A stretch of DNA of 25,032 nucleotides, from the NCBI GenBank assembly GCA_964447495.1, contig CAYUTF010000045.1, positions 1-25,032 of the forward strand, read 5' to 3'. This stretch comes from an uncultured archaeon. GTDB taxonomy: Archaea; Asgardarchaeota; Lokiarchaeia; Sigyniarchaeales; SOKP01. The stretch's first letter is position 1. Each line of letters begins with the position of its first letter. This document shows positions 3,904 through 22,611 of this stretch, piece after piece. The translations under genes and the position numbers were made by a program. The notes under the pieces were generated by a model. It ran no database searches and was not told the DNA's origin. It worked only from the letters and a program-made list of their open reading frames with translations.

Positions 3904-4269
3904 TTAGGAGATTAATTTTTCTACTAATTTCCTAAACTCTTGGACTTTAATAGGTTTCGATACATATTCAGTAAATCCTGCTTGTAATATACGCTCTTTA
4001 TCACCTTTCATTGCAAATGAAGTAACCGCGATTATCGGTTTATCTTTAAATTTATCTATTTTTCGAAGTTCTGAGCAAATTTCAATTCCATTAATTATAG
4101 GCAGTTGTATATCAAGTATTATTATGTCAGGATTACCTGTTTTAATCAATTCTAAACCTAAATCTCCTTGGGTTTCTTCATAAATTTCGACTTCAGGGAT
4201 TAACTTCAAAATTGCTCTGAATAACTTCATATTCTTTTCATTATCTTCAATTATATAGATATTCTTCAT
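3904..4269 (-). CDS. Single-domain response regulator (CheY/DivK-like receiver)
   Basis: IIEDN acidic pocket, phosphoacceptor D53 (IILDIQLP), T83 in AVTSFAMKGD and K105 in SKP. No output domain. Confidence 0.95.
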   Translation of the reverse strand: MKNIYIIEDNEKNMKLFRAILKLIPEVEIYEETQGDLGLELIKTGNPDIIILDIQLPIINGIEICSELRKIDKFKDKPIIAVTSFAMKGDKERILQAGFTEYVSKPIKVQEFRKLVEKLIS

Positions 4270-5759: not shown

Positions 5760-7298
5760 ATGAATAAGAAAATAATTTTTATCGGTCCTTCTGGAGCAGG
5801 AAAAACAACTATTCGAAAAATGTTTTTTGAAGGAGAGAACTCTAAAAAGCTACTTGAATATGCTCTGGAGCCCACTTATGGTGAAGAGTCATTGATATTA
5901 AGATTACCAGGTATTAATGAAAATATTGGAATCTTTGACTTAGCTGGACAGGAGAATCATCGCTGGTTGGAAACTGATGAAAACTCGATATTTGTTGATT
6001 CTAAATTAATACTAGTGGTAATAGATATCAGTTCAGATTTTGGATTAATATCTGAATTTATAAGAAAAATCGTAGATATTCGAGATCAATTATCTCCAAA
6101 CTCCATGATTTATGTACTATTGCATAAAATTGATCTTATTGATGACAAAAAGTTTAAAGAGGTAAAAACCAATACGATACTAACATTCTCTGATACAAAA
6201 CTCTTTAAGATAAAGTTTACAAGTCTAAAAAAGAAATATTTGGTTCATACTTTTTCTGATTTCTTAGAGATCATGAAGTCTTGCCTAATAGAGGAAGATT
6301 CTGAGGATGCATTAGAATTTAATGTTATAGATGAGTCAATAAAAATCATCTCAGAAATTAAAAATCAAATTTCGATATCTAAGAAAGTCTTAATTGAAAA
6401 ATTGAATCGCCCAGAGAAATTGGTAAACTATTTAATAGAAAGTTTAGAGAAAAAGAATCACATTAGTATACAGGATTTAGAAAATGATGAAGTAATCAGT
6501 TTAACAGATTTTGGAAAAGATTATTTCTCGAATATTCTTAAATCATTTTCTTCCAAACTTATAGTTGAAAATGAAAATCTAGTAAAATCTAATAAGAATT
6601 TATCACCTGAAGAAATTCCATCCTTTATAGGAGCTTTAATATCTGACAAAGATGGAAGGACATTACTCAAAATCGAATTAAATGAAGATTATTTAAAGAA
6701 ATTTTTGTTTAAAAGAGAAAATCTTGATCCATCGTCTATTCTAGCTGACTTAGATTTAATTCCAATGTTTATTAGTGCATTAGAAAAATTCTCAATGGAA
6801 TTAAATATTCATGATCTATCTGGATTTAATTTATCTGGAAGTAATTTAAAGTTAAATATAATAAGCTATGATTTATATAATGTAATTTTGTTCATGAATC
6901 CTGATGTAAATATTGATCCACTAAAAATAAGAATACAGAATTACTTCAACAATATCTTCGACGAACATAATGAACTTTTTAATAAATGTCTTAAAACGGG
7001 ACAAACTGATTTATTGTCTCCAATATTAAAAGAGACAAAAAATTGGTTAGAAGATATAAATAAAACTTATCAAAATATGATTATAAACTTAGAAATAATT
7101 GATATTGAGCATGCAAAAAGATTATATGATCAAATAGACAACTTGTATGAAAAAGTAAGTCAAACGTTTGGAATAACACTTGATAAAATTAAAAAGCTAA
7201 AAGTAAATCTTATGAAAGCAATTTTAGAAAAAAATTATGAAGAGCTAATTAGCATATCAAATCATGCTAAAAAATTAAGTCTAAAATTTGCTGCGTAG
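5760..7298 (+). CDS. Rag/Gtr-like GTPase, winged helix, longin-like domain and helical tail
   Basis: Motifs GPSGAGKT, EPTYG, DLAGQE, HKID and TSL. wHTH ISKKVLIEKLNRPEKLVNYLIESLEKKNHI...SLTDFG. Longin-like FIGALISDKDGRTLL...LIPMFISALEKFSMEL. It starts 1 nt after the upstream stop, suggesting translational coupling. Confidence 0.8.
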   Translation: MNKKIIFIGPSGAGKTTIRKMFFEGENSKKLLEYALEPTYGEESLILRLPGINENIGIFDLAGQENHRWLETDENSIFVDSKLILVVIDISSDFGLISEFIRKIVDIRDQLSPNSMIYVLLHKIDLIDDKKFKEVKTNTILTFSDTKLFKIKFTSLKKKYLVHTFSDFLEIMKSCLIEEDSEDALEFNVIDESIKIISEIKNQISISKKVLIEKLNRPEKLVNYLIESLEKKNHISIQDLENDEVISLTDFGKDYFSNILKSFSSKLIVENENLVKSNKNLSPEEIPSFIGALISDKDGRTLLKIELNEDYLKKFLFKRENLDPSSILADLDLIPMFISALEKFSMELNIHDLSGFNLSGSNLKLNIISYDLYNVILFMNPDVNIDPLKIRIQNYFNNIFDEHNELFNKCLKTGQTDLLSPILKETKNWLEDINKTYQNMIINLEIIDIEHAKRLYDQIDNLYEKVSQTFGITLDKIKKLKVNLMKAILEKNYEELISISNHAKKLSLKFAA

Positions 7299-7303
7299 AC
7301 TTT

Positions 7304-9382
7304 TTATGTATTTAAATTACTGAACTTTTTTATGATTGAGAAACAAAATGTAGTACCAACTCCTAAAACACTATAAAAAGTAATCTCCCCGCCATGTAAT
7401 TCAATTAATCTTTTAGTTAGCGATAAACCTAAACCTGTCCCGGGAACTGAGCGGACATAAGTTGAATCTACTCTTTTAAAATCTTTAAAGATGATTGGAA
7501 AATCTTTAGTATCAATTCCAATACCCATATCTGAAACCTCGAATTCCCATTTATCATTTAATTCTTTAATTTTAAGCGTTATGATGCCTTCAATAGTGAA
7601 TTTTACAGCATTACTCAACAAATTTAATAAAATTTCTTTAAACCTAATAGGGTCCGCTTCTAACATTTTTTCATTTTCTAATCCTACTACCCTAAATTGT
7701 AATTTTTTGTTCCCAATTAATGGTTTTAGGCTTGAGAAAATTTGTTCTATCATAGAATTTAAGGAAAAACTTTGAATTTTCATAGTAATTTGACCAGATT
7801 CAATTTTTGATATGTTTAAAATGTTTTTAATCATCTCAAACTGATCCTCTGCTGAAATTTTAATATCATTCACGAATTCTCTTTGTTCAGTATTTAAGGG
7901 GCCATAAACTTCCTCTAAAAGTAATTCTGTAAATCCTATTATAGCATTCAAAGGAGTCCTTAATTCATGAGACATAGTTGACATAAATTCTGTTTTGAAT
8001 TGGGAAGACTTTAAAATTTGATCTACATATTTTTTTTGCTGCTGAAAGGCAAAATTCAAATCTCCTGTCCGAGCTTCAACTTCCTTTTCTAAGTCTTCTT
8101 TAAACTTTTGTTCAAGCAGCTCTCTTTTCTTCTTTTCTGTAATGTTTTGAAAAAGAAGTTGAATATATATATTATTATCCTGTTTAATAACTGAAGCCTG
8201 TACTTCTAACCAAACGCAATCATTTAATTCAGTTTTTATCTTAATTTCGATAGGTTTAGGAAATTCCTTTTTAAAATAGGCTTGAAAGGTTTTTTTGTAA
8301 AAATTCTTCAATTCTATAGGAAATAAATCATCAAAATCTTCTAGTGATTTACCAATAAAGAAATCTTCTTTATATCCGAAAACTTTTTGAGTAGATTGAT
8401 TAGCATCAATTATAACACCTTTGAAATCAATAAATAATATTGCATTTGGAGAATTGTCGAAAAGATTCTTATATTTGACCTCAACCCATTTACGCAGTTC
8501 TATATTATTTAAAATAAGCATTAACGTTTTAGAGTGTGTTGTGGATGGCTCATAAATATTACATCCAAATTCCTTCCAATGGCCCTCATTATTTTTCATC
8601 CTGATTTCTAATTGAATGTGTTCCTTGGGGGATTTAGGATCAAATACTTTTTCTAATTTATCGAAATCGTCATGATGAACAAAACTTAGCAGTGAAAAAC
8701 CTATAACATCTTCAGGATTATAACCTAAGTACTCCAATAACGGTTTTTTGTTAACATTCTCAATATCATAATTTGATTTAATAGTAATAATAATATCATT
8801 TGAATTCTCTACTAAGGATTCGCTTTTTTTTTCAACAATTTCTAATTCTCTCGTCATCTTAGAATTTTCTAAGATTTCAGACACGATAAGACATAATAAT
8901 TTAATTTTTAACAGAATTTTGTTTGAAAAGAAACTATCCTTAGTATCAGATATAAGTCCTATAAAACCCAATAAATTTTCATTGGAATTAATAGGAATAG
9001 CTATAAAATATTTAATATTCTTTAATTTTAATAAATCTATAATAGAGTCTGCATATTCCGATTGTTTCTTATCTAAATTTATGTAAACTACAGATTTATT
9101 TCTTAATTTTTCATGTAACCAGGGAAACAACTTTAAGCTTAATACATCGGGGAATTCATTATTTTCTACTAAATTTTTTAAGTTGGAATATCGAACAATT
9201 TTAGTTGAATTGAATAAATCATCAATAATCGACAAAAAACAATAATCCATTCCGCTAACTTTACATATCAGTTTAATAATACGAGCTAATTTCTTGTCTG
9301 CATTAGATTCGGAAGCAATATTATCAAATATTTCAATAAATGAATGGGAATCGAAATCTAGATCAAAATCTTCTTCAATCAT
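7304..9382 (-). CDS. Soluble sensor histidine kinase (GAF-PAS-PAS-HisKA-HATPase)
   Basis: H-box MSHELRTPLNAIIGF (H472), N-box NLLSNAVKFT, G1 DMGIGI, F-box IFKDF and G2 GTGLGL. PAS signatures GYNPEDVIG..FVHHDD and LFDNSPNAILFID. GAF IAIPI...LLGFIGL. No transmembrane segment seen. Confidence 0.95.
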   Translation of the reverse strand: MIEEDFDLDFDSHSFIEIFDNIASESNADKKLARIIKLICKVSGMDYCFLSIIDDLFNSTKIVRYSNLKNLVENNEFPDVLSLKLFPWLHEKLRNKSVVYINLDKKQSEYADSIIDLLKLKNIKYFIAIPINSNENLLGFIGLISDTKDSFFSNKILLKIKLLCLIVSEILENSKMTRELEIVEKKSESLVENSNDIIITIKSNYDIENVNKKPLLEYLGYNPEDVIGFSLLSFVHHDDFDKLEKVFDPKSPKEHIQLEIRMKNNEGHWKEFGCNIYEPSTTHSKTLMLILNNIELRKWVEVKYKNLFDNSPNAILFIDFKGVIIDANQSTQKVFGYKEDFFIGKSLEDFDDLFPIELKNFYKKTFQAYFKKEFPKPIEIKIKTELNDCVWLEVQASVIKQDNNIYIQLLFQNITEKKKRELLEQKFKEDLEKEVEARTGDLNFAFQQQKKYVDQILKSSQFKTEFMSTMSHELRTPLNAIIGFTELLLEEVYGPLNTEQREFVNDIKISAEDQFEMIKNILNISKIESGQITMKIQSFSLNSMIEQIFSSLKPLIGNKKLQFRVVGLENEKMLEADPIRFKEILLNLLSNAVKFTIEGIITLKIKELNDKWEFEVSDMGIGIDTKDFPIIFKDFKRVDSTYVRSVPGTGLGLSLTKRLIELHGGEITFYSVLGVGTTFCFSIIKKFSNLNT

Positions 9383-9439: not shown

Positions 9440-12361
9440 TTAAAGCACGTTTAGGAAATCAAAAACAGTCTCAGATTTCGTTCTGTTTTTATAAACTTTA
9501 GGTATGGTAAATGTAAAAGTGGACCCTTTACCTAAAGTACTTTTGAAAGAAATATCTCCCCCGTGTAAGTTGACTATTCTCTTTGTTAAAGCTAATCCTA
9601 AACCAGATCCCACTACCGATTCAACATATGGTGATTTAACTCTCTTAAAATCTTTAAAGATTAGATCGTAATCTTTTTCTGCTATACCTATTCCTGTGTC
9701 AATAACATTAAATATCCAATAATTAGACTCATCCTTGAATTCAAGGATAATTTCTCCTTCTAATGTAAATTTTATAGCATTTCCAATTAGATTATATAAA
9801 ATTTGTTTCAATTTAATGCGATCCGCACTGATTACTGTCTTTTTATTAATATATTTATATTCAATTTTTAGATTCTTCTTTTGGGTTAATGGTTTAAAGT
9901 TAGAAACAATTTGTTCAATTAAATAAAAAAGGTTAAATTTTTCAATCTTTATTGATAATTCTCCAGATTCAATCTTAGATATATCTAGAATCCTTGTGAT
10001 CATATCTAATAGATGCACAGAGGAATCTTTAATGTCTGTTATGAAGTCTAGCTGATCTTTATTTACATCTCCATAAGATTCTTCTAGTAGTAAATCTGTA
10101 AATCCAATTATCGCATTTAAAGGTGTTCTTAATTCATGAGACATTGAAGCCAAAAACTCTGTTTTAAATTGAGATGTTTTAGCAATATGATCTAAATAGA
10201 ACTTTTGTTTTTTTAGAGCATCTTTGAGTTCATCAGTTCTTAAAATGACTTCTTTTTCTAATGATTCTTTAAATTTTTCCTGTAACCTTAGAGCCTTTTT
10301 TCTTTCTGAAATATCCCTTACAATAGCTTGAAGGTAATATTGCTTTCCATGCTTTTGGCGGTTCAAGGAAATTTCCGCATCAAAAGCAGTTCCGTCTTTT
10401 CTGAGATGTTTCCATGTAAAATTTAATGCTTCACCGTCTAAGGCACGATTTATATAATTTAAAGCCATTTCTTTTGATGTTTTGCCATTTAATTGATATA
10501 GAGGAGAGAATTCCCATGGAGAGACACCGATGAAATCTTTTTTACTATTATAACCATATATTTTGACAGCCATTTTGTTAGCATTAATTATTCTTTGATT
10601 TTCTAATAAAAAAATAGCATCCATAGCGCCATCAAAGATACTACGATATTTTTTCTCAGAATCAATTAATTCAAGTTCAGATCTTTTTTTTTGTGAAATA
10701 TCTTGTAATATAACTTGAATAAGGATTTTCTTATTGACTGAAATTAAAGTAGTATGCAGTCTCACCCAGTTTAATCTGAAATTATCACTAAGAACTGGAA
10801 TATCAATTGGATTTACAATTTCCTTATTCAATACTTCTTTTAATTTTTCTTGAAATATGGGTAGATTTTCTTTTCTAATCAGGTTTAAATCGATGATCTT
10901 TTTACCTAAAATGTGTGGCTTCTTGTATGGGATATAGTCTAAAACCATTTCATTAACATCAACAATAGTACCATTAAAATCTAAAAGAATTATCATAAAT
11001 GGGGCAGTTTTAAAAAGATTTTTATATCTCAGTTCTGATTCTTTTAATTTTTCTTCAGTAAATTTTCGTTCTAGTGCATTAGCTATAATCTGAGATGTAA
11101 ATTGGAGTAGAGATTTGTCATTATAAGTCCAAATTTTTTTTTTTATTTCATAATCAAACCCAATAAATCCAATTAACTCTTGATTACTTAAAATAGGACA
11201 TGCAATTGTACTTTTTATTCCATTTTTGATCAAATCACTTTTAAGGTTATTAGCTTCGATTGGTAATTCTATGAGATCATTTACTTCAATAAATTCACCG
11301 TTTTTAAGTTGGAGCATAACCCATGGATATTGATTTAATGGTTTTTTATTGTAGTAATTAATATGAGATTGAATTCCATCTCTACACCATTCATACGCAT
11401 TATTTAAATTCATTAGATCTTTATCAACAAGAAATATATATGCTCTATCGACATTGCATTCTATACCAATATCTCTTAATGTAAAATAAATAACCTGATC
11501 AATATTTATGTTTCCAACAAAGCGGGAAGAAAGAGAAGTAACAAGTTTTTCATAACTAATTGTGTCGTTAATGATTTTCTCTTTAATTTTTTTATCAGTT
11601 ATGTCTCGAATTATAGCGACAGCATTCCACTTTCCCTTAATAAACACAGATGATATACTTAATTCAATAGGAATTTTATTTCCATTCTTTTTAATTGCCT
11701 CAAACTCTATACATTTCCCAATTAAATTTCCCTTCCCTGAACTTTTAAATAATTCAAAACCTTTCTTAAACGCGGGAATATAATGTTTTGGAGCAAGAAC
11801 TTCGTGTGCATCTTTTCCAATAATCTCATCTTTTCGATATCCAAAAATTTTTTGAGCAGCATCATTCCAATATATAATTCTTCCATTAATATCAATTTGA
11901 ACAATCCCATCTTGTGTGGAAGAACTTATCAATTGGAATTTTAGCTCCTCTTCATCAGTCATCTCAGATTTTCTCTGAGTAATTTCATTAATGCTTCCGA
12001 TAAATCCTATCCGATCGTATTGTTTTTTTCTAACAATGAAACCACAGTCCTGAATAAGCTGATATAATCCATTTTTTTTTTTAATTCTATATTCTAACTT
12101 ATAATTTTCATAATTTTTACTAGCTTTTATTAAATTCATATTCACAAGTTCTTGATCATCAGGGTGGATTAGATTTAGCCAATTTTCTAGACATACATGA
12201 CTAAAATTATCTTGGTTATATCCAAGAATAAAATCTATAGGACCATAAAGAGTAAAAATGCTGTTTGTAAAATCAATCTCATATATTAGTTGACTGTTGT
12301 TTTCTTGAAAATCAATAATATTGTCACAACTATTCGGAACATTTTTTGATTGATTCCACAT
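9440..12361 (-). CDS. Soluble sensor histidine kinase (PAS-PAS-GAF-PAS-PAS-HisKA-HATPase)
   Basis: H-box MSHELRTPLNAIIGF (H742), NLIGNAIKFT, DTGIGI and GSGLGL. PAS motifs WLNLIHPDD, WNDAAQKIFGY, LFKTAP and IFDGAMDAI. GAF VDRAYIF..YEWC...PWV...IGFIGFD. The start is GTG and uncertain. Confidence 0.95.
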   Translation of the reverse strand: MWNQSKNVPNSCDNIIDFQENNSQLIYEIDFTNSIFTLYGPIDFILGYNQDNFSHVCLENWLNLIHPDDQELVNMNLIKASKNYENYKLEYRIKKKNGLYQLIQDCGFIVRKKQYDRIGFIGSINEITQRKSEMTDEEELKFQLISSSTQDGIVQIDINGRIIYWNDAAQKIFGYRKDEIIGKDAHEVLAPKHYIPAFKKGFELFKSSGKGNLIGKCIEFEAIKKNGNKIPIELSISSVFIKGKWNAVAIIRDITDKKIKEKIINDTISYEKLVTSLSSRFVGNINIDQVIYFTLRDIGIECNVDRAYIFLVDKDLMNLNNAYEWCRDGIQSHINYYNKKPLNQYPWVMLQLKNGEFIEVNDLIELPIEANNLKSDLIKNGIKSTIACPILSNQELIGFIGFDYEIKKKIWTYNDKSLLQFTSQIIANALERKFTEEKLKESELRYKNLFKTAPFMIILLDFNGTIVDVNEMVLDYIPYKKPHILGKKIIDLNLIRKENLPIFQEKLKEVLNKEIVNPIDIPVLSDNFRLNWVRLHTTLISVNKKILIQVILQDISQKKRSELELIDSEKKYRSIFDGAMDAIFLLENQRIINANKMAVKIYGYNSKKDFIGVSPWEFSPLYQLNGKTSKEMALNYINRALDGEALNFTWKHLRKDGTAFDAEISLNRQKHGKQYYLQAIVRDISERKKALRLQEKFKESLEKEVILRTDELKDALKKQKFYLDHIAKTSQFKTEFLASMSHELRTPLNAIIGFTDLLLEESYGDVNKDQLDFITDIKDSSVHLLDMITRILDISKIESGELSIKIEKFNLFYLIEQIVSNFKPLTQKKNLKIEYKYINKKTVISADRIKLKQILYNLIGNAIKFTLEGEIILEFKDESNYWIFNVIDTGIGIAEKDYDLIFKDFKRVKSPYVESVVGSGLGLALTKRIVNLHGGDISFKSTLGKGSTFTFTIPKVYKNRTKSETVFDFLNVL

Positions 12362-12409: not shown

Positions 12410-13291
12410 TTAAGAATTGTTATCATCTAAGATTAAGAATATGGAGAAAATTTCATAAACCAAACATCCATCTTCTGCCTTTTGTTTATTTTTATGGTTT
12501 TCTAAACCAACTTTGTAATAATATCCATTATCTGATAATATATACTTCCTTGTCTTATTTTCAATAGCAATAATTCCTTTAGTTTTTAATTGATTTATAT
12601 AAAAATTAACTTGCTCATGGCTTAATTTAAGTTTAGAGACTAACTCTTCTATTTGAATTTCTCTATCTTCAGTTATATTCATTAATAAAGAAAACTGGTT
12701 TTTAAGATGAAAAAAATTATCACTATCGGGTAAAATATTCTCATAAGGAAGAATCATTTTTAATAATTTAGATAAAACTCGAAAAGTGGTGTAATAATAA
12801 CTCTCGGTAATCGAAGTTTTGTAAATCTCAAAATGAGCTCCTCGAGGGTGTTGTTTTGTAACAAAATCATGAATAGCTTTAATTTTTTGGTCCATATACG
12901 AAGGGCTTACTAAGTCTGCTTTATGTAAAAATGCTACTATATGGCATGAGTTTAATTTATTTTCTTTTTGAATATGATAGATATTAAGAATAAATTGAAT
13001 TATAGATTCAACCGAATTATGAATGTCAAAGATACAAATAATCATATTTGAATCATTGAAAACGGAATCTTTTGTCTCTGATAACCATAAATCATTTTCT
13101 TGTCCAGCTAGGTCAAATATACCGAGTTTATTATTGAATAATGAATATACTGATGTAGTTATTCCTCTTGAGGGATTTATGGGATTTACTAAGAGTGATA
13201 TTGGGCTATATCTCTCAAAGAAAGTTTTCTTAATTGAGGTTTTTCCAGTCCCTGATGGTCCAACAAATACTATTTTCTTATCGTTTATCAT
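12410..13291 (-). CDS. Rag/Gtr-like small GTPase fused to C-terminal winged helix (paralog of 3003..3878)
   Basis: Motifs GPSGTGKT, NPSRG (Ser at the G2 Thr position), DLAGQE, HKAD and TSI. wHTH IQIEELVSKLKLSHEQVNFYINQLKTKGII...YILSDNG. Confidence 0.85.
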   Translation of the reverse strand: MINDKKIVFVGPSGTGKTSIKKTFFERYSPISLLVNPINPSRGITTSVYSLFNNKLGIFDLAGQENDLWLSETKDSVFNDSNMIICIFDIHNSVESIIQFILNIYHIQKENKLNSCHIVAFLHKADLVSPSYMDQKIKAIHDFVTKQHPRGAHFEIYKTSITESYYYTTFRVLSKLLKMILPYENILPDSDNFFHLKNQFSLLMNITEDREIQIEELVSKLKLSHEQVNFYINQLKTKGIIAIENKTRKYILSDNGYYYKVGLENHKNKQKAEDGCLVYEIFSIFLILDDNNS

Positions 13292-13306: not shown

Positions 13307-14005
13307 TTATTTAATTGCTGATGATAAAGGTGTTTCAAGAGCTTCAATAATATCCTTACATGAATCAAGCATCATTTCAATATAGCTAGAAATCTCATTT
13401 TTTGAAATATTACCCTTTAATCCAATCTGTTCTTGTATTATTTCACAAAAACCTTGGATAGTATTGACTCCACTTCTTATTTGTAAATTTATGGATTCCA
13501 GTGGCAGCACTTCCCCTTTCTTCATATATATTTCGCTTACTTCTTTGAAAAAGCTCTCAAAAGCAGATTCATCATCAGATAAAATTAAATTTGTATCAAT
13601 TTTATGAAAAATCATACCTATTCTTTTGAGATGCAAAATAGGAATGAGAGGATATTCAACATCTCGCAAAATTATAATAGCATATAACTGTTTTCCCCCT
13701 CTTGCACTTGAATCTTTAACTTCAATTTTATATACTTGTGAATAAAATTGATTGAAGTCTAAAATAACAAATTTATTTTTAGTGTTTAACGCATCTCGCA
13801 ATAAATTCCTAATAAAAATTACGTCTTTTAAAACTACGGAGGAATATAATGAACGCGGTCCTAAAATATGATCATACTTTCCTATTATTATAATAAAGGG
13901 AAATTTATCTAGATCTTCCTTGAATTGAAAATAGGGTTCTTTTGAGTTATCATATAACTTTTCTTGACCTATATCTTTTCTTATTATATCATCCATAATT
14001 ATCAT
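13307..14005 (-). CDS. Folliculin-like longin domain (putative Arg-finger GAP) fused to a His-less HisKA/DHp-like domain
   Basis: IIIIGKYDHILGPRSLY and YKIEVKDSSARGGKQLYAIIIL resemble FLCN longin motifs recalled from memory (FCELHGPRTLF and FFIKDSLARGFQRWYSII). C-terminal SINLQIRSGVNTIQGFCEII aligns without gaps to the neighbouring kinases' TMSHELRTPLNAIIGFTELL, with H replaced by L174. Confidence 0.7.
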   Translation of the reverse strand: MIIMDDIIRKDIGQEKLYDNSKEPYFQFKEDLDKFPFIIIIGKYDHILGPRSLYSSVVLKDVIFIRNLLRDALNTKNKFVILDFNQFYSQVYKIEVKDSSARGGKQLYAIIILRDVEYPLIPILHLKRIGMIFHKIDTNLILSDDESAFESFFKEVSEIYMKKGEVLPLESINLQIRSGVNTIQGFCEIIQEQIGLKGNISKNEISSYIEMMLDSCKDIIEALETPLSSAIK

Positions 14006-14216: not shown

Positions 14217-15698
14217 ATGTCAGAATCTTCAAAGATTATAATCAAATACTTTTGTGATCGGTTTTTAGACATTGATTACTATCCAACCTCATTAAAAACT
14301 GTCCTTGACTTGGAATTAAGTTTTTTAAAAGGAATAACTGATGATCAGTTAAAAAAGTTCTTAAAATTGGATATTACGACTCTAAGGGATTTATCAGGAG
14401 TTAATGGAGAAGATTATGAAAAACAAGCAAAAAAGGTTAATTTAGATTTATCGACTTTTAAAAACGCAATTATCGCTGCTTACTTAGTTGCTAATTCTTG
14501 GAATAAAAGAAAATTATATATGAAAAAGCCCAAAATGAAAGTGGTTATAGCAGGTTTAGATTATGCAGGAAAGACTTCCCTTATGAATCGTCTTATCAAT
14601 GATTATAATTATAATGATATGATAAATTTAGAACCAACAATTGGTGCTAATGTTGAGGAATATCAATCAGAAAGGTTAGATTTAGTTTTATGGGACTTAG
14701 GCGGCCAAAAGGACCATATTAATGAATATCTAGCATCACCAGAAAGATTTTTTGTTCATGTAGATGTAATGATCTTTGTATTTGATTCTCAAGATGATAT
14801 TCGATATGATGAAGCTCTAAAATATTTAAGAGATCTAATTGATATCTTTGGGTTTTTAAATGAATTACCATATATAGAAATATTACTTAATAAAGCGGAT
14901 TCTGATGTAGTTAAAGATCCTGATTTTCAAATAAAATTAGAATATTTAACAGATAAAATTTCTAAAGTTTTTATGGAAAGCGAAAAATCATGGAATTTTG
15001 AAATGATTCCCACTAGTATTTATAATTATTACTCAACAGAGCCTGAAATCGCAAAAAGTATTAAAAGTATTTTTTCTAAAGAAAAAGATGTGCTTGATAC
15101 TGGTACACTATTGCCAGATATTAATGAAAAACTGCAAAAGATCTTAGATATTAACTTAAAATTAATGGATAAAGTTGTTGTAGAACTTAGTGAGGTTAAA
15201 AGGGTTTTACATCAAATTACGCCATCAGATGTATCTCAAACACTTTTTTCAATACCCTTTGAAAAAGTACCTATTGATTTTATATCTACCAATGATATAA
15301 AAGAAGAACAAAGTAAACTGAAGAAGAAAAAGAAAAAAGATTCCGCAATAGATATGAAAAAAGTAAAACAAAAGAAAAGTTACGGTCCACCTAAAAGATT
15401 GAAGGAATTACCTAAACCTACTGAAGAAGTGGTTAAATTAAAAGAATCTGAAAAAATTACAATTGATAAGATTAAAGAAGCTAAAGCACAACTTACTTCA
15501 GAGATTACTGATAATATTGAATCAAAAAGACCACCTATGGCTCCTAAAGTAAATCAAATAACATTAAATATGCTTAAACCTCCATTACCCCCTCCAAAAC
15601 TCACATCAAATTCTGAGGTAGGACAAGAAAATGTAAGAACTCAGGTTATCTCTGAATTAAAAGAGATGTTTGTGAAAAGAGGTTTAGTTTCCAGATGA
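14217..15698 (+). CDS. Arf-like small GTPase with N-terminal helical (HhH-like) domain and Lys/Pro-rich C-terminal tail
   Basis: Arf-type motifs VVIAGLDYAGKTS, EPTIGANVE, LWDLGGQ, FVFDS.D..RYDEA, ILLNKAD and TSI. N-terminal LSFLKGIT....KKFLKLDITTLRDL is helix-hairpin-helix-like. The tail contains KKKKKK, PPLPPP and a terminal amphipathic helix. Confidence 0.85.
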   Translation: MSESSKIIIKYFCDRFLDIDYYPTSLKTVLDLELSFLKGITDDQLKKFLKLDITTLRDLSGVNGEDYEKQAKKVNLDLSTFKNAIIAAYLVANSWNKRKLYMKKPKMKVVIAGLDYAGKTSLMNRLINDYNYNDMINLEPTIGANVEEYQSERLDLVLWDLGGQKDHINEYLASPERFFVHVDVMIFVFDSQDDIRYDEALKYLRDLIDIFGFLNELPYIEILLNKADSDVVKDPDFQIKLEYLTDKISKVFMESEKSWNFEMIPTSIYNYYSTEPEIAKSIKSIFSKEKDVLDTGTLLPDINEKLQKILDINLKLMDKVVVELSEVKRVLHQITPSDVSQTLFSIPFEKVPIDFISTNDIKEEQSKLKKKKKKDSAIDMKKVKQKKSYGPPKRLKELPKPTEEVVKLKESEKITIDKIKEAKAQLTSEITDNIESKRPPMAPKVNQITLNMLKPPLPPPKLTSNSEVGQENVRTQVISELKEMFVKRGLVSR

Positions 15699-15747: not shown

Positions 15748-17286
15748 TTAATTTATTATATGAGTTAAAGCATTATTTATTTGCATTTCATCATTTGCTA
15801 AATAGCATTGCTTAAATATCGAAGCAAAAAATGCGCGATCTTTAGGATTAAAATATTTATATCCAAACTTTTGCCATTCTATGGTCTTATTTAAAGGAGC
15901 AACCAATGAAATCTTACTTTTTACTAGCTCAGTAAGCAATAGTGGAATTTCTTCTTTTGTATTAACATTTATAAGATTAAGAACGACATCATCATTGAAA
16001 TAATCCCAAGATTCCTTAAACTGCAAACAAAAGCTTTTAATATCAACACGATTGTTAATGATGAGTTTAGCTAACCCTGAAATCGCAAGTTCATTTGGAC
16101 TTTGAGTATTCATTGGATTGGAAATGATCGTACTTGGTATGACTTTCTCTTGACTACTTATTTGTGGAAGATTGTATTCCGGCAATACACGTAATTGATT
16201 CATCCCAAGAATATTTCTAACATCTCGGATTGATCCCCCTGTATCAAAAAAGCGTTTATTAATAACATATATCAGTAGTTTTTCGGCGTGAATATCTCCA
16301 AAATAGGGATAATCTGATGCATAGAGGATATATTCTGACCAGTCTCTATTATCGACGGAAATTTTATTATGTGTTCGAAACCATTTCCGAAAATCCTCAA
16401 GAAAATTTCCTGCACCTTCACCATGGAGCATGGATAAATCTCCATAAGTGTTTGGTTGGACAATCGCATTATATACTTCATAATCTCCAATATTTCCCTG
16501 GGCAAAATGCGCAATAATAACTTTAAAATGCGGTAAAAGATTCGGATTATTCTGTAAGATTGCACTTCGGGTGGATTTTACTAATTCCGCAATATCTAAA
16601 ATTGATCCTCTCCCCCGTGTATCAAATATTACTGGCATTGAGTGTTTTGCTGCCTCGAGAAGAACATTAATAGCTTTCGATGACTTAATATCATCAATCC
16701 AGCGTTCGGAACGGGGATGTAGTTTTAATCCTCGAAGTCCTAACACTTCCCGTGCATAGCGAACCTCATTTACTGCTTTTTGTCCTTCCATAGGATCTAC
16801 TCGAGCATACCCGATTAATTTCATAGAAAATGGAAAGCGGGTGGTAAATCGCGATATATTAATATTACTTGCGCGGTATAACGCTTCAGGATATTTATCT
16901 CGAAATACATCTTGAAACGGAAATACAACACCTTGGTCTATAAACGAATAAAACTTCGCTTTCTCTTTTAGGTCGGAATAACGTTTCCCGAGTTTTTTAA
17001 GGGCACTATATAGTTTGTTGGTAAAGGGATACGGGGTAAATGACCAACTTAGTCTTGCTGGTGCTCGATCTATAGTAGTATTAAAAGATTGTTCTCCATT
17101 CTTTTCCCAATCCGCATTTATTCGACCTTGAATATTCCCCCAAAAATCAAAGGTACCCGTTCCTGGAGCGAGAGGATTCATCATAGTAGCGCCATCTACA
17201 TCTTCACCTAAGTGAGAATGAGCATCAATTACAAAAATATGTTCAATTCTTTTTTTTCCGCCTTGTTCTATTGTTGCTGTTAACAT
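15748..17286 (-). CDS. Metal-dependent amidohydrolase (Amidohydro_2-like TIM barrel) with C-terminal extension
   Basis: IDAHSH (HxH), GLRGLKLHP, IIAHF and ILYASDYPY motifs. Confidence 0.85.
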   Translation of the reverse strand: MLTATIEQGGKKRIEHIFVIDAHSHLGEDVDGATMMNPLAPGTGTFDFWGNIQGRINADWEKNGEQSFNTTIDRAPARLSWSFTPYPFTNKLYSALKKLGKRYSDLKEKAKFYSFIDQGVVFPFQDVFRDKYPEALYRASNINISRFTTRFPFSMKLIGYARVDPMEGQKAVNEVRYAREVLGLRGLKLHPRSERWIDDIKSSKAINVLLEAAKHSMPVIFDTRGRGSILDIAELVKSTRSAILQNNPNLLPHFKVIIAHFAQGNIGDYEVYNAIVQPNTYGDLSMLHGEGAGNFLEDFRKWFRTHNKISVDNRDWSEYILYASDYPYFGDIHAEKLLIYVINKRFFDTGGSIRDVRNILGMNQLRVLPEYNLPQISSQEKVIPSTIISNPMNTQSPNELAISGLAKLIINNRVDIKSFCLQFKESWDYFNDDVVLNLINVNTKEEIPLLLTELVKSKISLVAPLNKTIEWQKFGYKYFNPKDRAFFASIFKQCYLANDEMQINNALTHIIN

Positions 17287-17515: not shown

Positions 17516-19012
17516 ATGATATCTGAAAAGGTAAAGATACAATTAATATTCGTAGGAAAACCTCAATGGGAAGCTGGTTGGCCGTATATAGGCTATAATA
17601 ATGAACTTTTAATAAAATCTGTGAATGATCATTTAAATAGTAAATTTCCTGAAATATTATTTTCTAATAGTGATGTTATTACAACCTATGATGTTAATTT
17701 AGTAAATGAAATCAAAGAAACCATCAAAAAATCTGATGCTAATATACTCTTTACTATTGGGCATTATGGAGATCCTGGGATTGTCCAGGCAGGAATAGAG
17801 TTTATCGAACTTAAAAAACCAACTATTTTAGCTAATTTTATTTATCAAGGAGATCATACATTTATTAAAATCCTTTCTAGTATTAAAGCTATTGAATCTA
17901 CAGTATACCCAATATCATCCATCAATCTTGAGGATTTTGATAAATCTATCGAAACATTAATAAAATTAATCAATATGCAAGGAAAAAGAGTGTTATTGTA
18001 CGCTCCCGATAAAATCAAAATGGATTGGAAAAGAATTTTGGGATTATTTAGTCCAGAACAAAACCGTATTAGAAAAGAACATCCTGACTTTCTTGAACAG
18101 GTATTAAGTCTTAGCTCCGACCAAGAATTTGAATTTTATACAGATATAGTTGGAAAGGATCAAGCACATCAATGGAGAAGAGATGAAGGAAAATATATAA
18201 AAAATCTTAAAGATATTTTTGGCATCGAAATGGTTAAAGGTAATCCTGATGAAATTCTGGAGTTTTATGATAAAGTAAATGAACAAGAAGCACAAAGTAT
18301 TGCTACAAAATGGAAAGAAGAAGCACTTAGAGTTGATCCTAATGACAAAACGGTTTTAAATTCAGCAAAATTATATTTAGCGTTAAAGAACTTATTACAA
18401 GAAAAAGATTTTGCTTTTTTTACTCCAGATTGTGGTACATTTTTGCTAACTGGAAAATTGCCTGCGTATCCGTGTTTAGCTTTCATGGAATTAACAAATG
18501 ACAACATTTATGGTATATGTGAATCCGATATGGATTCAACTGTCAGTTACATTTTTGGTTTAAGTATTACTGATCGTCCAGGATTCGTCTCCAACCATAC
18601 TATTGATACATTAAATAATCAAATTACTTATATGCACTGTGTTGCGCCAAATAAATTATTTGGGGTAGATGGTCCAAAATCTAATTATGAAATAGTATAT
18701 CATGGAGAAACGCATTATTTAGGAGCCTCTCCGCGTGTTAAATTTCCTATTGGAGAAATGGCTACAACTATAAAAATAAGTGTGTTAGAGAAGAAAATAG
18801 CAATTCGAACGGGAAAAATAATTAACAATCTTGTGGATGATAGAGGATGCGTCTCAAAGATGCTAGTAGCTACTAATGTAAAAAAAGTAATAGATAATTA
18901 TGATTGGGAAACTTTTGGATGGCATAGGGTTACATTTATAGGAGATTGGAAAGAAAAATTCATTATTGGAGCTAAGATATTAGGTTTAAACATTATAGAA
19001 GAGGATAAATAA
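17516..19012 (+). CDS. L-fucose/L-arabinose isomerase-like protein
   Basis: C...LPAYPCLAFMEL...GICESD (metal-binding ExD), YMHCVAP, downstream H and C-terminal GWHRVTFIGD are typical of FucI/AraA-like proteins. Substrate unknown. Confidence 0.7.
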   Translation: MISEKVKIQLIFVGKPQWEAGWPYIGYNNELLIKSVNDHLNSKFPEILFSNSDVITTYDVNLVNEIKETIKKSDANILFTIGHYGDPGIVQAGIEFIELKKPTILANFIYQGDHTFIKILSSIKAIESTVYPISSINLEDFDKSIETLIKLINMQGKRVLLYAPDKIKMDWKRILGLFSPEQNRIRKEHPDFLEQVLSLSSDQEFEFYTDIVGKDQAHQWRRDEGKYIKNLKDIFGIEMVKGNPDEILEFYDKVNEQEAQSIATKWKEEALRVDPNDKTVLNSAKLYLALKNLLQEKDFAFFTPDCGTFLLTGKLPAYPCLAFMELTNDNIYGICESDMDSTVSYIFGLSITDRPGFVSNHTIDTLNNQITYMHCVAPNKLFGVDGPKSNYEIVYHGETHYLGASPRVKFPIGEMATTIKISVLEKKIAIRTGKIINNLVDDRGCVSKMLVATNVKKVIDNYDWETFGWHRVTFIGDWKEKFIIGAKILGLNIIEEDK

Positions 19013-19021
19013 TTTTACTTT

Positions 19022-20719
19022 TTATTCTCTCATTTCTTTTGGGAGAGTTAGCACTCCTGTTAAAGGATTATTAAGTGGATCTTGACAGTACTCTATAGTG
19101 AAATATATTAAATCATATAAAATATTGGGGTCTTGTCCTGATTTCTGCTTATAATCATAAAGAGATAATTGATATTCAGCTTCAGTTATTGGAGGCTCAG
19201 CATAACTTACACCTCCAAAAACGCTCTGCAAAACCGGTTTTAAAAAGGGAGAATAGAGAAAGCCAAGTTCTTTCAATTCATCTTTAAGGTAGAAGAACAT
19301 TCGCTGGACAGCCTGCGTCATATATCTAACTGGTTGATTTTCCGGACCTAAGTACTGTTCTGCAAATACAGGATCATAACTTGCTAGTTGTTCGCGTGTA
19401 AGGTTTTGAGGTCGGAATAGCGAGATTAAACCTCGTTCGATTGATGTTTTTCGATTATAGGCTATGGTTTCACTTCCCGCATCTGGTACCCATACTCCTT
19501 TTTGTAAGAGTTTGCGAGCTTTGTAACATAATGCTTGTATTAAAAGTGCAATTCCAATCCTTCTACATATTGATATCTGAGCGTCGCTTACTCGTATTTC
19601 GATTGTCCCCCAATCGGTAAAAGGAAATACGTCTTGAAATCTTCCGTCCTCTAAACTCGCCTTTTGGACAACTTGGAGGAAATAATTAATGGATTCTTGA
19701 TCGGAAGATGTTAAATAAGGGATAAAATGTTTTGGATCATTATTACTTAACATAGTGCTATTATATTTTAATCGTAAAGATCTGACACAATTAGGTGCTG
19801 TAATCCTATTATTAACCACTTTGATCTCATCAGTTGGTTTATTGTTGATTATCGGGGAATTACAAGTAAGAGAAATGATATGTGGTATAAAGTTACGTAT
19901 CATACAATATGCCTGTATCTTCTCTAAATCTGACTGGAAAGTGCCAAGGTGGCTATGATCTGCTTGACTTAGACCTCTCATATACTCTTTTGCCGCTGGA
20001 TTTATAGCAGAAGCGATGATATGTAAGTCAGAGGGTAATGTAGTCTTCGCTAAAAGAAATAAAGTACTTGCCCAGTATGCTAGCTCTTCCACAAATTCGC
20101 ACGGGGGAGTTACAAGTTCTAAGATATAGGTGACTGCGGTAACATTACCATCTCTAGCGAAGGTATCAATATCGACGGAAGCGCTATCTCCTAATTTATA
20201 ACGTATTTGCATAGCGTACCCTTTTTCTAAGTCATCTCTTCCCCAAGGTCGAGCTAAAACTTTCTCTCTAATATAATCAGGGACTGGTAGAAAATCGCTC
20301 CGTCCTTCATATAAGACTTGATCCATTATCCGTATGGCATCTTTTACGATCTCTTTCATCCGGAACACCATCTCATCTCCCGGAGGATAATTTCCATTAT
20401 CATCAGCGATTATTAATTCCATTTCGATACCATGGGTAAAGGGCAATGGCGTCCAATTCTGAATATCTGCGAGAATTTCCCCCCAAGATCTTTCAGGTAT
20501 ATGAACTTCGCGATAATCAGTGCCCACAAACAATTTGTCTTTCGATCTATCGATTTGCTCACCGATATATACTCCTTGAGGTAAACTTTTTGCTCCTTTA
20601 CCTTTCGTTTTTTGTTTTGAAACTTTGCTTGATCCTCCCATGAACTGGGAAAACGTATCAATTTCGGTATCAGACCCTTTCTTTTTTTTCTTTTTTTTGT
20701 CTTTACCCACAATCCTCAC
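19022..20719 (-). CDS. Glutamate--cysteine ligase family 2 (GCS2)-like carboxylate-amine ligase
   Basis: THGIEMELII (ExE), ILELVTPPC, HSHLG, LTCNSP, SLR and GTIEIRVSDAQ match GCS2/YbdK-like motifs. Lys-rich N-terminal extension and GTG start. Confidence 0.8.
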   Translation of the reverse strand: MRIVGKDKKKKKKKGSDTEIDTFSQFMGGSSKVSKQKTKGKGAKSLPQGVYIGEQIDRSKDKLFVGTDYREVHIPERSWGEILADIQNWTPLPFTHGIEMELIIADDNGNYPPGDEMVFRMKEIVKDAIRIMDQVLYEGRSDFLPVPDYIREKVLARPWGRDDLEKGYAMQIRYKLGDSASVDIDTFARDGNVTAVTYILELVTPPCEFVEELAYWASTLFLLAKTTLPSDLHIIASAINPAAKEYMRGLSQADHSHLGTFQSDLEKIQAYCMIRNFIPHIISLTCNSPIINNKPTDEIKVVNNRITAPNCVRSLRLKYNSTMLSNNDPKHFIPYLTSSDQESINYFLQVVQKASLEDGRFQDVFPFTDWGTIEIRVSDAQISICRRIGIALLIQALCYKARKLLQKGVWVPDAGSETIAYNRKTSIERGLISLFRPQNLTREQLASYDPVFAEQYLGPENQPVRYMTQAVQRMFFYLKDELKELGFLYSPFLKPVLQSVFGGVSYAEPPITEAEYQLSLYDYKQKSGQDPNILYDLIYFTIEYCQDPLNNPLTGVLTLPKEMRE

Positions 20720-20727
20720 TTTTATTA

Positions 20728-22611
20728 TTACAATAATGATTCAATAAACATTTTAAAAAGATCGTAATCGTTCAAAAATTCATAAGATAATACAAGATTA
20801 ACAATATCTGCACCCATAACTCCAAGAGTATTCTGTATTGGTTCTAGTGATGCCCCCCCCTTAAACACTCCATCATCAATTAATATGGTGGCTTTACTAC
20901 CTATTTTACTCTCCACTTTTGATGTAATCATGCTAAGAGAGCTTGAATTAGAAGCAAAGATTATTGTTGGTTTTCCTAAATAAGGAATAAAATCTAAATT
21001 GAAAATTATTAAATTTTGGTTTAATTTGCTAGATGGAAAGAATTGTTTTAATGTTCTTTGAATTACAGATAACTCTTCTTGATCGAGGTTGTTGATGGAA
21101 GGATAAATGTAATATGCAATTGATTTTTTTGAAGTATATTTTAAGTCTGTATAGACTCGATCTAAAAATGGAAAAATACTAAAGTTTAAGCTAAATAATG
21201 AAATGAAAAGGATTTTAAAATCAAAATCATTCATGAGAGCATTACTACTGGCATTACCTCCAAGTAACGCAAACTGCTGGAGTTCATTGGAAAGGTTTGA
21301 GATGTAAGTATTTAACGAATAAAATTGTGAAAAAATGGTAGTGGTTTCTACTCTGGTTTTAACTTCATTAACCATTTCGTATATAAGATCGAATAAGTCT
21401 TTTGCCAATTTTTCTCTGATATCTGGAGCAGTAATCTCTTTAATAGCATTATCAGCTGTTTCTGGACAATCTAATTCTGCAATTATACAAATCGCATTTT
21501 TCAAATAAGAATATGCTGGGTTTTTAAATTCATTTTCGGATAAATTAATTTGCGATGAGTTTTTAATAATTTGATCAATATACTTTACAACTTGAAGAAT
21601 TTGCTCATTCTTTTTAGAAGTTTGCAATTCCTTCATCAGATTAAATAATACCTTAACTTTAAGAAACTCCTCACTAATTAAATACGAATATTTAAGTGCG
21701 ATATCAAATTGGCTTTTGTAACTTTTACTTATTATATCTGTGATCGCCTGATCTCTCGAAGAAGGTTTGGAAATTAAAGATATTATTTTGGAGATTTCAT
21801 TAGGATTAATATCTACATAATCATAAGCAATTTCAGACAATACCACATTGCGTTTAGTTTCATCATTCAAATTTTTAATGATTTGTAAACTTGCATCTAA
21901 ATTTTTAACTGAATTGACTCGAATCAAATCGTAATAAAATTGAGTCTGTTCTTCTTGTTTTGATAGTCTTAACGCAGATTCTAGCGCTTTATACATCTCT
22001 CCGACGGCTAAATAACCCTTTGCGAGCTTTTTATATTGCACATCAATCTCTCTAATATTAACCTTCACATCGGAAGAAACTTTACCATTTTGATTGTTAT
22101 TACCTTTTTGTTGCACTTGGTAAGTATTAATTAAGGATGCTAAATCTTTTTCAATTTTCTTTACATCACTTTTAGACACTTCGATAATAAAGTCATTTCT
22201 ATTGAAGTTATCTACGGTTTTAGAGCTTAAAATCTGGGTTTTTGCTAATATTTTTTCTATTTTACTGCTAGAGATAGTTGTTCTTAATTTCTGTACTTTT
22301 TCAGTATATTCAATCAATTTCAACCAATAGATATTGATAATGAGTTTACCAAATCCATCCGCTTTTGGGATAAGGTTTAAATTTATTTTCCGTTGTTCTC
22401 CTGCTTTTAATTTGATATTAGTGTTAAATTCCTCAGGAGAAACTTTTATTTCAATATTTTCTCCTTTAAATTCAAATTTAAAGTCTGCTTCTTTGTTTAG
22501 ATTATTTACTACTTGTAAAGAAACCGCATTGTCGATATTTGGAATTAAAATATTTTGAGGAAATTTAGAAACGGTTAAAGATACAGCATTGTGTGAGTCT
22601 GAAATAGTCAT
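20728..22611 (-). CDS. Hypothetical protein: Ig-like beta N-terminus, helical-repeat middle, alpha/beta C-terminus
   Basis: 627-aa ORF. N-terminal VSLQVVN...IKLKAGEQRKINLNLIPKADGFGKLII is beta-sandwich-like, and there are TPR-like helices (LAKGYLAVGEMYKALE). It ends 8 nt before the GCS2-like gene. Confidence 0.6.
   Translation of the reverse strand: MTISDSHNAVSLTVSKFPQNILIPNIDNAVSLQVVNNLNKEADFKFEFKGENIEIKVSPEEFNTNIKLKAGEQRKINLNLIPKADGFGKLIINIYWLKLIEYTEKVQKLRTTISSSKIEKILAKTQILSSKTVDNFNRNDFIIEVSKSDVKKIEKDLASLINTYQVQQKGNNNQNGKVSSDVKVNIREIDVQYKKLAKGYLAVGEMYKALESALRLSKQEEQTQFYYDLIRVNSVKNLDASLQIIKNLNDETKRNVVLSEIAYDYVDINPNEISKIISLISKPSSRDQAITDIISKSYKSQFDIALKYSYLISEEFLKVKVLFNLMKELQTSKKNEQILQVVKYIDQIIKNSSQINLSENEFKNPAYSYLKNAICIIAELDCPETADNAIKEITAPDIREKLAKDLFDLIYEMVNEVKTRVETTTIFSQFYSLNTYISNLSNELQQFALLGGNASSNALMNDFDFKILFISLFSLNFSIFPFLDRVYTDLKYTSKKSIAYYIYPSINNLDQEELSVIQRTLKQFFPSSKLNQNLIIFNLDFIPYLGKPTIIFASNSSSLSMITSKVESKIGSKATILIDDGVFKGGASLEPIQNTLGVMGADIVNLVLSYEFLNDYDLFKMFIESLL

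Follow-up and report, generated by a model that had tools for sequence, protein, structure and literature searches.

A Lokiarchaeia longin protein with a histidine-less kinase dimerization hairpin: a probable link between two-component signaling and Rag-like GTPases

Eukaryotic Rag GTPases are switched off by paired longin proteins that act as GTPase-activating proteins (GAPs), namely GATOR1 and folliculin. How would a longin of this kind come to be joined to a piece of a prokaryotic two-component system, and what could that piece do once its phospho-accepting histidine has gone? These questions are raised by a gene on the 25,032-nucleotide stretch of Lokiarchaeia DNA analyzed here (hereafter the window), which is contig C45 of a 3.8-Mb genome in 223 contigs and is AT-rich, with 26-34% G+C. 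The gene encodes a longin domain followed by a helical hairpin of the dimerization (DHp) type found in HisKA kinases, without the histidine. This small longin-DHp protein is a eukaryote-style longin joined to a kinase dimerization hairpin that has no histidine, and it probably wires two-component signaling to Rag-like GTPases. An initial annotation, made from the letters alone, had described positions 13330-13515 as a DHp lacking the histidine and fused to a putative GAP without any ATPase domain. Its coordinates, residues and numbering are right, including Leu174. The elements of the gene are as follows:

13307..14005, minus strand: longin plus His-less DHp gene (P0001); open reading frame with a 232-residue translation
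13526..13936, minus strand: longin domain of the NPRL2/folliculin type, residues ~24-160; AlphaFold2 fold, Foldseek and Pfam Folliculin
13853..13864, minus strand: L48-G49-P50-R51, the GP motif, in the loop preceding strand 2; invariant in 35/35 sequences
13697..13705, minus strand: A101-R102-G103, candidate arginine finger; translation, with R102 and G103 invariant in 35/35 sequences
13319..13510, minus strand: His-less DHp (HisKA-like) hairpin, residues 166-229, initially annotated at 13330-13515; helices and HisKA evidence
13448..13504, minus strand: H-box-like segment P168-F186, PLESINLQIRSGVNTIQGF; translation; near-invariant on every helix face
13484..13486, minus strand: Leu174, TTA codon, phospho-His column; translation and alignment register

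The hairpin is very probably a diverged homolog of the HisKA-type DHp. When residues 160-232 are compared with Pfam, HisKA is the sole family at E<=10, with a sub-threshold score (E=0.061, 13.8 bits). The initial annotation had aligned the segment with the H-boxes of the two neighboring kinases, and BLASTP recovers that register for the 973-residue kinase (E=0.021). The hairpin was also sought in its own genome with a profile of the last 73 residues (35 homologs), filters off, against 10,491 six-frame open reading frames, ten of which are HisKA frames. Four of these ten appeared at non-self ranks 1, 3, 5 and 21 with the H-box in register, whereas the best HisKA ranks of the control profiles (one reversed and eight column-shuffled) were 151, 88, 695, 371, 577, 482, 1094, 6 and 721. 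Alignment by hhalign to the genome's own DHp domains gave P=9.6e-5 and a probability of 58%, with Asn-Leu paired with Ser-His. Identity to the DHp of each neighboring kinase is 27% (11/41 columns), compared with 8-22% for the genome's other eight.

Searches of the Protein Data Bank (PDB) point the same way. With an alignment of the C-terminal part only (A3, 46 sequences), the top seven matches are histidine kinases (7n0e_A E=0.0034, 4jas_A 0.029, 7z8n_A 0.058, HK853 entries 0.28-0.47), and 12 of the 21 matches are kinase or RetS DHp domains, each spanning both helices and placing Leu174 on the histidine. Kinase 7n0e_A again ranks first with alignment A2 (E=0.02). The protein language-model search of the ESM Atlas with residues 160-232, which we treat as a lead only, names HisKA in 27 of the 30 named nearest clusters (scores 0.93-0.94). 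Some divergent relatives of the window protein score better against HisKA than it does: the reading frame L050:720-1403 reaches E=1.8e-5 (25.1 bits), P0153 0.0015 and P0148 0.013. Finally, a search of 1.84 billion representatives with the family profile yielded 34 proteins at E<=1e-3 and provided a transitive link: one of them is P0145 (E=1.6e-11), six stretches of which matched profile positions 161-216, and Pfam reads the same protein as six tandem HisKA domains (E=1.6e-37, 127.8 bits). We accept DHp homology because these individually weak scores agree in register and survive the shuffle controls, and because the transitive link and the fold described below accompany them; the identity of the domain is established in silico.

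P0145 deserves a description of its own. It is a metagenome protein of 556 residues in which an Ala/Gly-rich N-terminus is followed by six HisKA-type hairpins, with Phe at the histidine column in five of the six aligned stretches, and it looks like a scaffold of several pseudo-DHp units. Other retrieved proteins were discarded. P0152 (1462 residues, immunoglobulin-like repeats) and P0156 (513 residues, repetitive) matched over short repetitive stretches only and were judged spurious, and P0138, which combines an unrelated membrane-like N-terminus with the family C-terminus, is a possible gene-call artefact and was set aside.

The longin-DHp protein is a homolog of the DHp and not a kinase. Like the DHp of HisKA kinases such as HK853 (PDB 2c2a, 3dge), it has a hairpin with Arg at H+3, Ile at H+9, Gly-Phe at H+11/12 and Glu at H+14, counted from the histidine position, and a modeled parallel four-helix bundle. 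Unlike them, it has Leu in place of His, Gln in place of the acidic residue at H+1 and Gly in place of Pro at H+5, its Pfam score is sub-threshold, and it has no HATPase_c domain (Pfam, E<=1) or any further domain, the C-terminus (residue 232) lying three residues past the hairpin. As both the histidine and the ATPase domain are missing, it is not a working HisKA kinase. Moreover, given the aliphatic Leu174 and the missing ATP-binding domain, the hairpin should be unable to autophosphorylate or to accept phosphate.

Whether any homolog retains the histidine was a question posed by the initial annotation, and the answer is that the main clade does not, whereas most divergent relatives do. Among 47 species-level loci the Leu174 column holds Leu in 30, Met in 10, Ile in 4, Val in 3 and His in none; the cultured strain MK-D1 has Val. 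The 144 aligned rows from stored proteins give L 90, M 39, F 6, H 3, I 1, V 1, K 1 and gap 3, with five of the six F rows being P0145 repeats. In an alignment of divergent relatives with the DHp of the local 692-residue kinase (A4), the column is His in 8 of 10 relatives (P0148, P0158, P0159, P0149, the L050 reading frame, P0131, P0161 and P0134) and Tyr in the other two (P0153 and P0160), whose sisters keep His. The relatives show Ser-His or Glu-His at this column, and one branch has the usual kinase-type helix 2. Residues 4-185 of the 193 in P0148 match the window reading frame (E=4.7e-12), which indicates that the His-bearing relatives are full-length and not chance partners. Since outgroup HisKA domains have His, the histidine is the ancestral state, and the main clade has lost it. 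Judged from the sequences, then, the hairpin descends from a phospho-accepting DHp, and the loss in the Leu174 clade is an in silico result.

The His-bearing relatives are themselves unusual. The acidic residue that follows the histidine in kinases serves autophosphorylation. At this place the eight His-bearing relatives in A4 have Lys, His or Arg, never Glu or Asp, a substitution that, on its face, fits phosphotransfer or binding and not kinase chemistry. Relevant to them are Spo0B and ChpT, phosphotransferases in which a DHp performs phosphotransfer without kinase activity; these keep the histidine and have no longin. One branch (P0131, P0161 and P0134, which also includes the frame at 1902-2528 on the plus strand of L063) keeps His but carries Glu, Ala or Lys at the R102 column, so the histidine and the arginine of that column may have been lost in alternation. 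Three other proteins (P0133, P0135 and the frame at 683-1849 on the minus strand of L064) are 388-391 residues long and have a PAS domain and an extra H-box-like helix ahead of the longin-hairpin unit, which makes them versions of this module coupled to a sensor.

What does the hairpin look like? AlphaFold2 gives an antiparallel pair of helices, 166-195 and 202-229, and modeled by itself the hairpin has a pLDDT of 85.7. In Foldseek, where for this query the ranking alone is informative, kinase DHp domains make up 10 of the 12 best-ranked matches to the hairpin model, with HK853 in the majority and SrrB, an EnvZ chimera and KinB also present (root-mean-square deviation 1.1-4.2 Å over 55-67 columns, prob 0.91-0.99). 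The hairpin fold is established at this computational level; the interdomain linker is poorly predicted (pLDDT 53 for residues 161-170, pTM 0.61). The four-helix bundle that the initial annotation had expected of a homodimer was obtained: the two-copy model of residues 160-232 has an ipSAE of 0.52 (runs 0.52, 0.53 and 0.52) against 0.09 for the best control. In calibration, 20 of 30 proteins with solved pair structures reached that mark, as did 1 of 23 whose solved structures are single chains. At least 75% of the contacts agree between runs, and the partner pLDDT is 70. Residues 176, 183, 212 and 219 each touch their own counterpart, and helix 1 meets helix 2' at 180-216 and 187-209; this symmetric pattern implies a parallel four-helix bundle. 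Residue 174 lies outside the modeled interface, as expected of an outward-facing histidine position. According to this model the hairpin likely forms a homodimeric four-helix bundle, although the pass, which attests resemblance to a DHp dimer and not binding as such, may be due in part to its likeness to solved DHp dimers.

The fused partner had been called a putative GAP, and this also agrees with our results in that the domain is a longin of the GAP type. The AlphaFold2 model has strands 38-45, 49-55, 79-83, 87-97 and 105-115 and helices 62-73, 123-134 and 146-160, in longin-type order. The best Foldseek matches of this part are the GATOR1 chain 6ces_N (E=3.4e-4, prob 1.00), which we take to be NPRL2, and other GATOR1 entries; further matches are the FLCN complex chains 8dhb_J and 6ulg_N, DENND10 and the Lokiarchaeota longin 8yqg_A. 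Pfam Folliculin matches residues 79-121 with E=9.6e-4 and 19.4 bits, under its cut-off of 23.3. L48, G49, P50 and R51 are unchanged in all 35 sequences, and G49-P50 lies between strands 38-45 and 49-55. According to the available text of PMC12290439, GAP-type longins, and FLCN/SMCR8-type longins of Asgard archaea, have their GP motif in the loop ahead of strand 2. We identify the longin as the FLCN/NPRL2/SMCR8 GAP type on the closeness of its fold to GAP longins together with this placement of the GP motif, and the identity of this domain, too, is an in silico result.

R102 and G103, both inside the Pfam Folliculin match, are likewise unchanged in 35 of 35 sequences. From its place in the sequence, R102 would be equivalent to the catalytic Arg of FLCN and NPRL2, which makes it a candidate arginine finger, and GAP activity of the longin-DHp protein is putative. 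When the longin of the window protein and that of one relative were searched as single sequences against the PDB, no FLCN or NPRL2 chain was returned. Strand 2 and helix 1 of the longin (residues 38-70, ~13796-13894) repeatedly matched the N-terminus of CheY-like receivers (7od9_B and 6ekg_Y) at E=0.1-0.35, probably by chance.

If the hairpin has lost its chemistry, with what might it interact? The neighborhood indicates where to look. The longin-DHp gene heads a row of co-oriented genes: a gap of 15 nucleotides separates it from the GTPase gene, the next gap, of 48, leads to the PAS-GAF kinase, and a further one of 57 to the PAS kinase. The genes concerned are:

12410..13291, minus strand: Gtr1/RagA-like GTPase with a C-terminal winged-helix region, candidate client of the longin; Pfam Gtr1_RagA E=1.6e-15, weak helix-turn-helix (HTH) at residues 197-257
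9440..12361, minus strand: PAS-GAF-HisKA-HATPase kinase, 973 residues, H-box intact; Pfam
7304..9382, minus strand: PAS-HisKA-HATPase kinase, 692 residues; Pfam and translation
3904..4269, minus strand: CheY-like single-domain receiver, 121 residues, Asp53; Pfam Response_reg E=2e-23 and translation
14217..15698, plus strand: Arf/Rag-like GTPase, 493 residues, divergently transcribed; Pfam Arf E=1.6e-21, Gtr1_RagA E=2.1e-21
4442-5758 and 5760-7298: two more Rag-like GTPases
3003-3878: third GTPase-HTH
921-1388: Roadblock/LC7 gene

Within 15 kb there are therefore five Gtr1/RagA- or Arf-like GTPase genes, the Roadblock/LC7 gene, two kinases and a receiver, and most of these genes are found again, in unchanged order, in other genomes. 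Neighbor counts were made over 49 loci of species-representative genomes, the denominators being the loci with enough flanking sequence. Of the 40 loci with at least 1.5 kb of downstream sequence, 22 have a GTPase-HTH as the adjoining gene on that side and 15 have a kinase. Looking 5 kb downstream, 26 of 29 loci contain a co-oriented kinase, and two of the remaining three have a kinase directly upstream. The divergent GTPase is found in 23 of the 40 loci with at least 2 kb upstream, and a receiver ortholog (at least 100 bits) in 12 of the 20 loci of at least 15 kb. In MK-D1 (L041) the receiver is directly upstream of the longin-DHp gene, which is followed by a kinase, with gaps of ~80 and ~50 nucleotides. 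His-bearing relatives have similar company: the one in genome G144 (L050) has a Rag-like GTPase gene on one side and a receiver gene on the other, and genome G282 has a His-bearing paralog (L063) with kinases and receivers on its flanks alongside a Leu-type ortholog (L040). The conservation of the neighborhood is established in silico. The available text of Tran et al. (PMC10933270) states that small GTPase genes of MK-D1 are generally not in operons with longin genes; the window locus is an exception to this rule of GTPase and longin genes lying apart.

Conservation of the hairpin surface gives a further indication. Column entropy was computed over 123 non-redundant main-clade sequences, with the interface taken from the dimer model. 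Helix 1 (167-186) has a mean entropy of 0.67 outside the interface and 0.80 inside it, being near-invariant on all faces, whereas helix 2 has 1.76 outside and 1.28 inside, so that it is mainly the modeled core that is conserved. Position 174 itself is among the more tolerant ones (Leu 70%, Met 30%). Q175, S178 and N181, at H+1, H+4 and H+7, are conserved at 96%, 95% and 97%. A surface that stays unchanged after the catalytic residue has been lost speaks for a binding partner, and the kinases and receiver, as constant neighbors, are where to look for it. Docking of a receiver or a kinase at the H-box helix is plausible. The initial annotation had proposed that the domain contacts the receiver or the kinases, and the setting is favorable to this: co-oriented kinases accompany the gene in 26 of 29 loci, a receiver gene adjoins it in MK-D1 and likewise adjoins a His-bearing paralog, and no face of the H-box helix lacks conservation.

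We propose that the longin-DHp protein is a two-domain adaptor in which the DHp bundle pairs the longins, the H-box face docks the receiver and the action on the GTPase is altered; the chances of this whole scheme are about even. The hairpin would form a parallel homodimeric four-helix bundle that holds two longins side by side, as in eukaryotic longin GAP pairs. The outer face of the former H-box helix (P168-F186) would serve as the docking site for a two-component partner, possibly depending on phosphorylation, the best candidate being the CheY-like receiver of the locus, which the two co-operonic PAS kinases would phosphorylate at Asp53. Docking would then alter the action of the longin pair on a co-operonic Rag-like GTPase, such that a His-Asp signal becomes a GTPase state. 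As to the docking step itself, with the receiver favored over the kinases, we find the case evenly balanced.

Other explanations have to be weighed against this adaptor. The hairpin could be a relic DHp that serves dimerization only, pairing two longins in place of the DENN or NPRL2 C-terminal domains, with the kinase linkage reflecting co-regulation. The homodimer model passes, the core a/d positions are conserved in both helices and neither His nor an ATPase domain is present, all of which suits a plain dimerizer; but helix 1, unlike helix 2, is near-invariant off the interface as well, and the tight kinase and receiver linkage over 49 loci together with the His-bearing paralogs exceeds what a simple dimerizer needs, and we regard this explanation as rather unlikely. 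Still less probable is that the hairpin forms mixed bundles with, or docks on, the DHp of the PAS kinases, thereby inhibiting them or recruiting the longin. Its closest similarity is to the DHp domains of these two neighbors, a co-oriented kinase accompanies nearly all loci, and RetS, whose DHp appears among the PDB profile matches (6dk7_A, E=0.79), offers a precedent in its pairing with GacS (available text of PMC8498467). Yet the homodimer is modeled with confidence, and the extra similarity is small, amounting to 11 of 41 columns, and may stem from local ancestry. Docking on a phosphorylated receiver also has a sub-form in which the hairpin is a dedicated phosphatase that speeds dephosphorylation through Q175, S178 and N181 without the histidine. 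HisKA phosphatase activity depends on the H+4 residue, isolated DHp domains can keep phosphatase activity, and the three residues are conserved at H+1, H+4 and H+7; however, H+4 is Ser and not the Thr or Asn of the HisKA phosphatase motif, and H+1 is Gln and not Glu or Asp, so that this sub-form is very doubtful.

It is highly improbable that the hairpin is no DHp at all but an unrelated coiled coil, either SNARE-like or a generic hairpin after the longin, with a convergent or chance likeness to an H-box. Every direct score is sub-threshold, and a helical hairpin resembles many folds, the Foldseek list also containing nucleoporin, Mediator and designed proteins. Against this, independent methods recover one register, shuffled and reversed control profiles fail, P0145 supplies a transitive link, relatives have Ser-His or Glu-His at the same column with a kinase-like helix 2, and Pfam gives no family but HisKA at E<=10, for which reason the SNARE-like or other coiled-coil reading was rejected.

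Several results nevertheless weigh against the adaptor or the homology on which it builds. No single HisKA score suffices: the curated threshold of PF00512 is missed, with 13.8 bits against 26.9, the H-box alignment with the 692-residue kinase drawn in the initial annotation was not recovered by BLASTP (best match E=0.80, elsewhere), and the hhalign match of 58% probability is limited to 24 columns. All Foldseek E-values for the hairpin are at least 0.59 and not significant, as expected with a query so small. The full-length family alignment (A1) gave three PDB matches at E<=10, none of them a kinase or a longin; the two best were CheY-like receivers on the helix 1 region of the longin (E=0.1-0.12), which we took as chance. 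The evidence for the dimer is a model, and solved structures include many DHp dimers. Alternatively, the conserved face of the H-box could make contact with the GTPase or with the longin of the same chain. A receiver ortholog is present in only 12 of 20 loci, and the receiver may be the ordinary substrate of the kinases. Lastly, the gene occurs in 14 of the 41 genomes of its own genus, so its function is not a core one.

How does the longin-DHp protein relate to known systems? The concept of a longin/two-component fusion is already published. In the text available, Liu et al. (bioRxiv 10.1101/2020.10.19.343400) report Asgard NPRL2-like longins fused to two-component domains, describe no experiments on these fusions, and propose that Asgard growth control mixes prokaryotic two-component systems with 'eukaryotic' regulators. 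The window protein resembles this class, as far as that text describes it, in having an NPRL2-type longin and a two-component domain on one polypeptide in a genome of the Loki lineage. It differs in that the same text, figure 5c and the supplements not being covered, leaves the fused two-component domains unspecified and makes no mention of a DHp lacking His or an ATPase domain. Nor did a search of the Asgard literature, including 10.1101/2024.02.28.582541, find a longin-HisKA protein or a His-less DHp on a longin, His or Tyr relatives, or the conserved operon, again with figure 5c and the supplements of Liu et al. outside the search. The gain here is one of specificity and testability.

The comparison of the initial annotation with DivL stands as an analogy only. 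DivL of Caulobacter is kinase-derived and reads the phosphorylation state of a response regulator (available text of PMC4211667). The phospho-acceptor is replaced in both proteins, the window protein having a non-phosphorylatable residue at the histidine site, and the relatives P0153 and P0160 carry Tyr, the residue that the initial annotation ascribes to DivL. DivL, however, is bacterial and keeps a catalytic domain and PAS sensors, whereas the longin-DHp protein has no catalytic (CA) domain, an aliphatic Leu in place of Tyr and a longin output; reading of a receiver by the hairpin in the manner of DivL would be an analogy and no more. Like RetS with GacS (PMC8498467, available text), it may use a DHp for protein-protein control, though RetS keeps its catalytic domain and has no longin. 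On the longin side, it shares with FLCN, NPRL2, SMCR8 and the Asgard FLCN/SMCR8-type longins (PMC12290439, available text) the longin fold, the GP motif, a conserved Arg and the association with Rag/Arf-like GTPases. Unlike FLCN, NPRL2 and SMCR8, it has a DHp hairpin where they have a DENN or NPRL2-specific domain, is predicted to be a homodimer and not a heterodimer, and is a putative GAP.

The family may also document an evolutionary path. It is conceivable, though on balance doubtful, that it records a stepwise change of a true phosphotransfer hairpin into a phospho-sensor controlling a GATOR1/folliculin-type GAP, in which the His forms would be longin GAPs phosphorylated on His by, or exchanging phosphate with, a receiver, and the Tyr and Leu/Met/Ile/Val forms would only read the receiver's state. 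If this path is true, Lokiarchaeia run a direct relay from His-Asp signaling to Rag GTPases, which would be an archaeal forerunner of GATOR1/FLCN nutrient signaling with a two-component system in the place where TOR-pathway sensors later came. Apart from that path, the natural occurrence of one DHp with His, with Tyr or with an aliphatic residue is useful for studying the evolution of pseudo-kinase hairpins. A GAP-type longin covalently joined to a prokaryotic two-component piece, and encoded in an operon that also contains Rag-like GTPases, sensor kinases and a receiver, bears on the evolutionary origin of Rag regulation. The locus also offers a defined set of small soluble proteins from a non-pathogen (adaptor, receiver, two kinases and a few GTPases) for testing whether His-Asp phosphorylation governs a small GTPase in those prokaryotes that are most closely related to eukaryotes, and an ortholog set is present in the cultured strain MK-D1.

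Homologs of the longin-DHp protein number 288 at E<=1e-3, with 58-81% identity among the 120 matches listed. The gene family was located at 49 genome loci whose records are labeled Promethearchaeota/Lokiarchaeia, and relatives of the window gene carry the labels Promethearchaeota, Lokiarchaeota or Promethearchaeia. Its distribution is patchy: it was found in 55 of the 400 Asgard genomes searched and in one order only; counted by family of genomes, it is present in 46 of 134, 7 of 14 and 1 of 4, and in 0 of 247 elsewhere. Several orthologs contain in-frame stops, for example G228:C25 (two TGA and two TAA), and the module may have been gained and lost as a block.

Some minor observations concern the rest of the window. 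Pfam at E<=1e-3 assigns nothing to the large open reading frames 17516-19012, 19022-20719 and 20728-22611, and the frame 15748-17286 has a weak Amidohydro_2 match just below threshold. Two of these frames, 19022-20719 and 15748-17286, recur with very high conservation in other genomes, where they lie upstream of the locus and score up to 1135 and 1034 bits. The signaling block is flanked by a prenyltransferase of the undecaprenyl-diphosphate-synthase type (22763-23488) and a leucine-rich-repeat protein (23837-24784).

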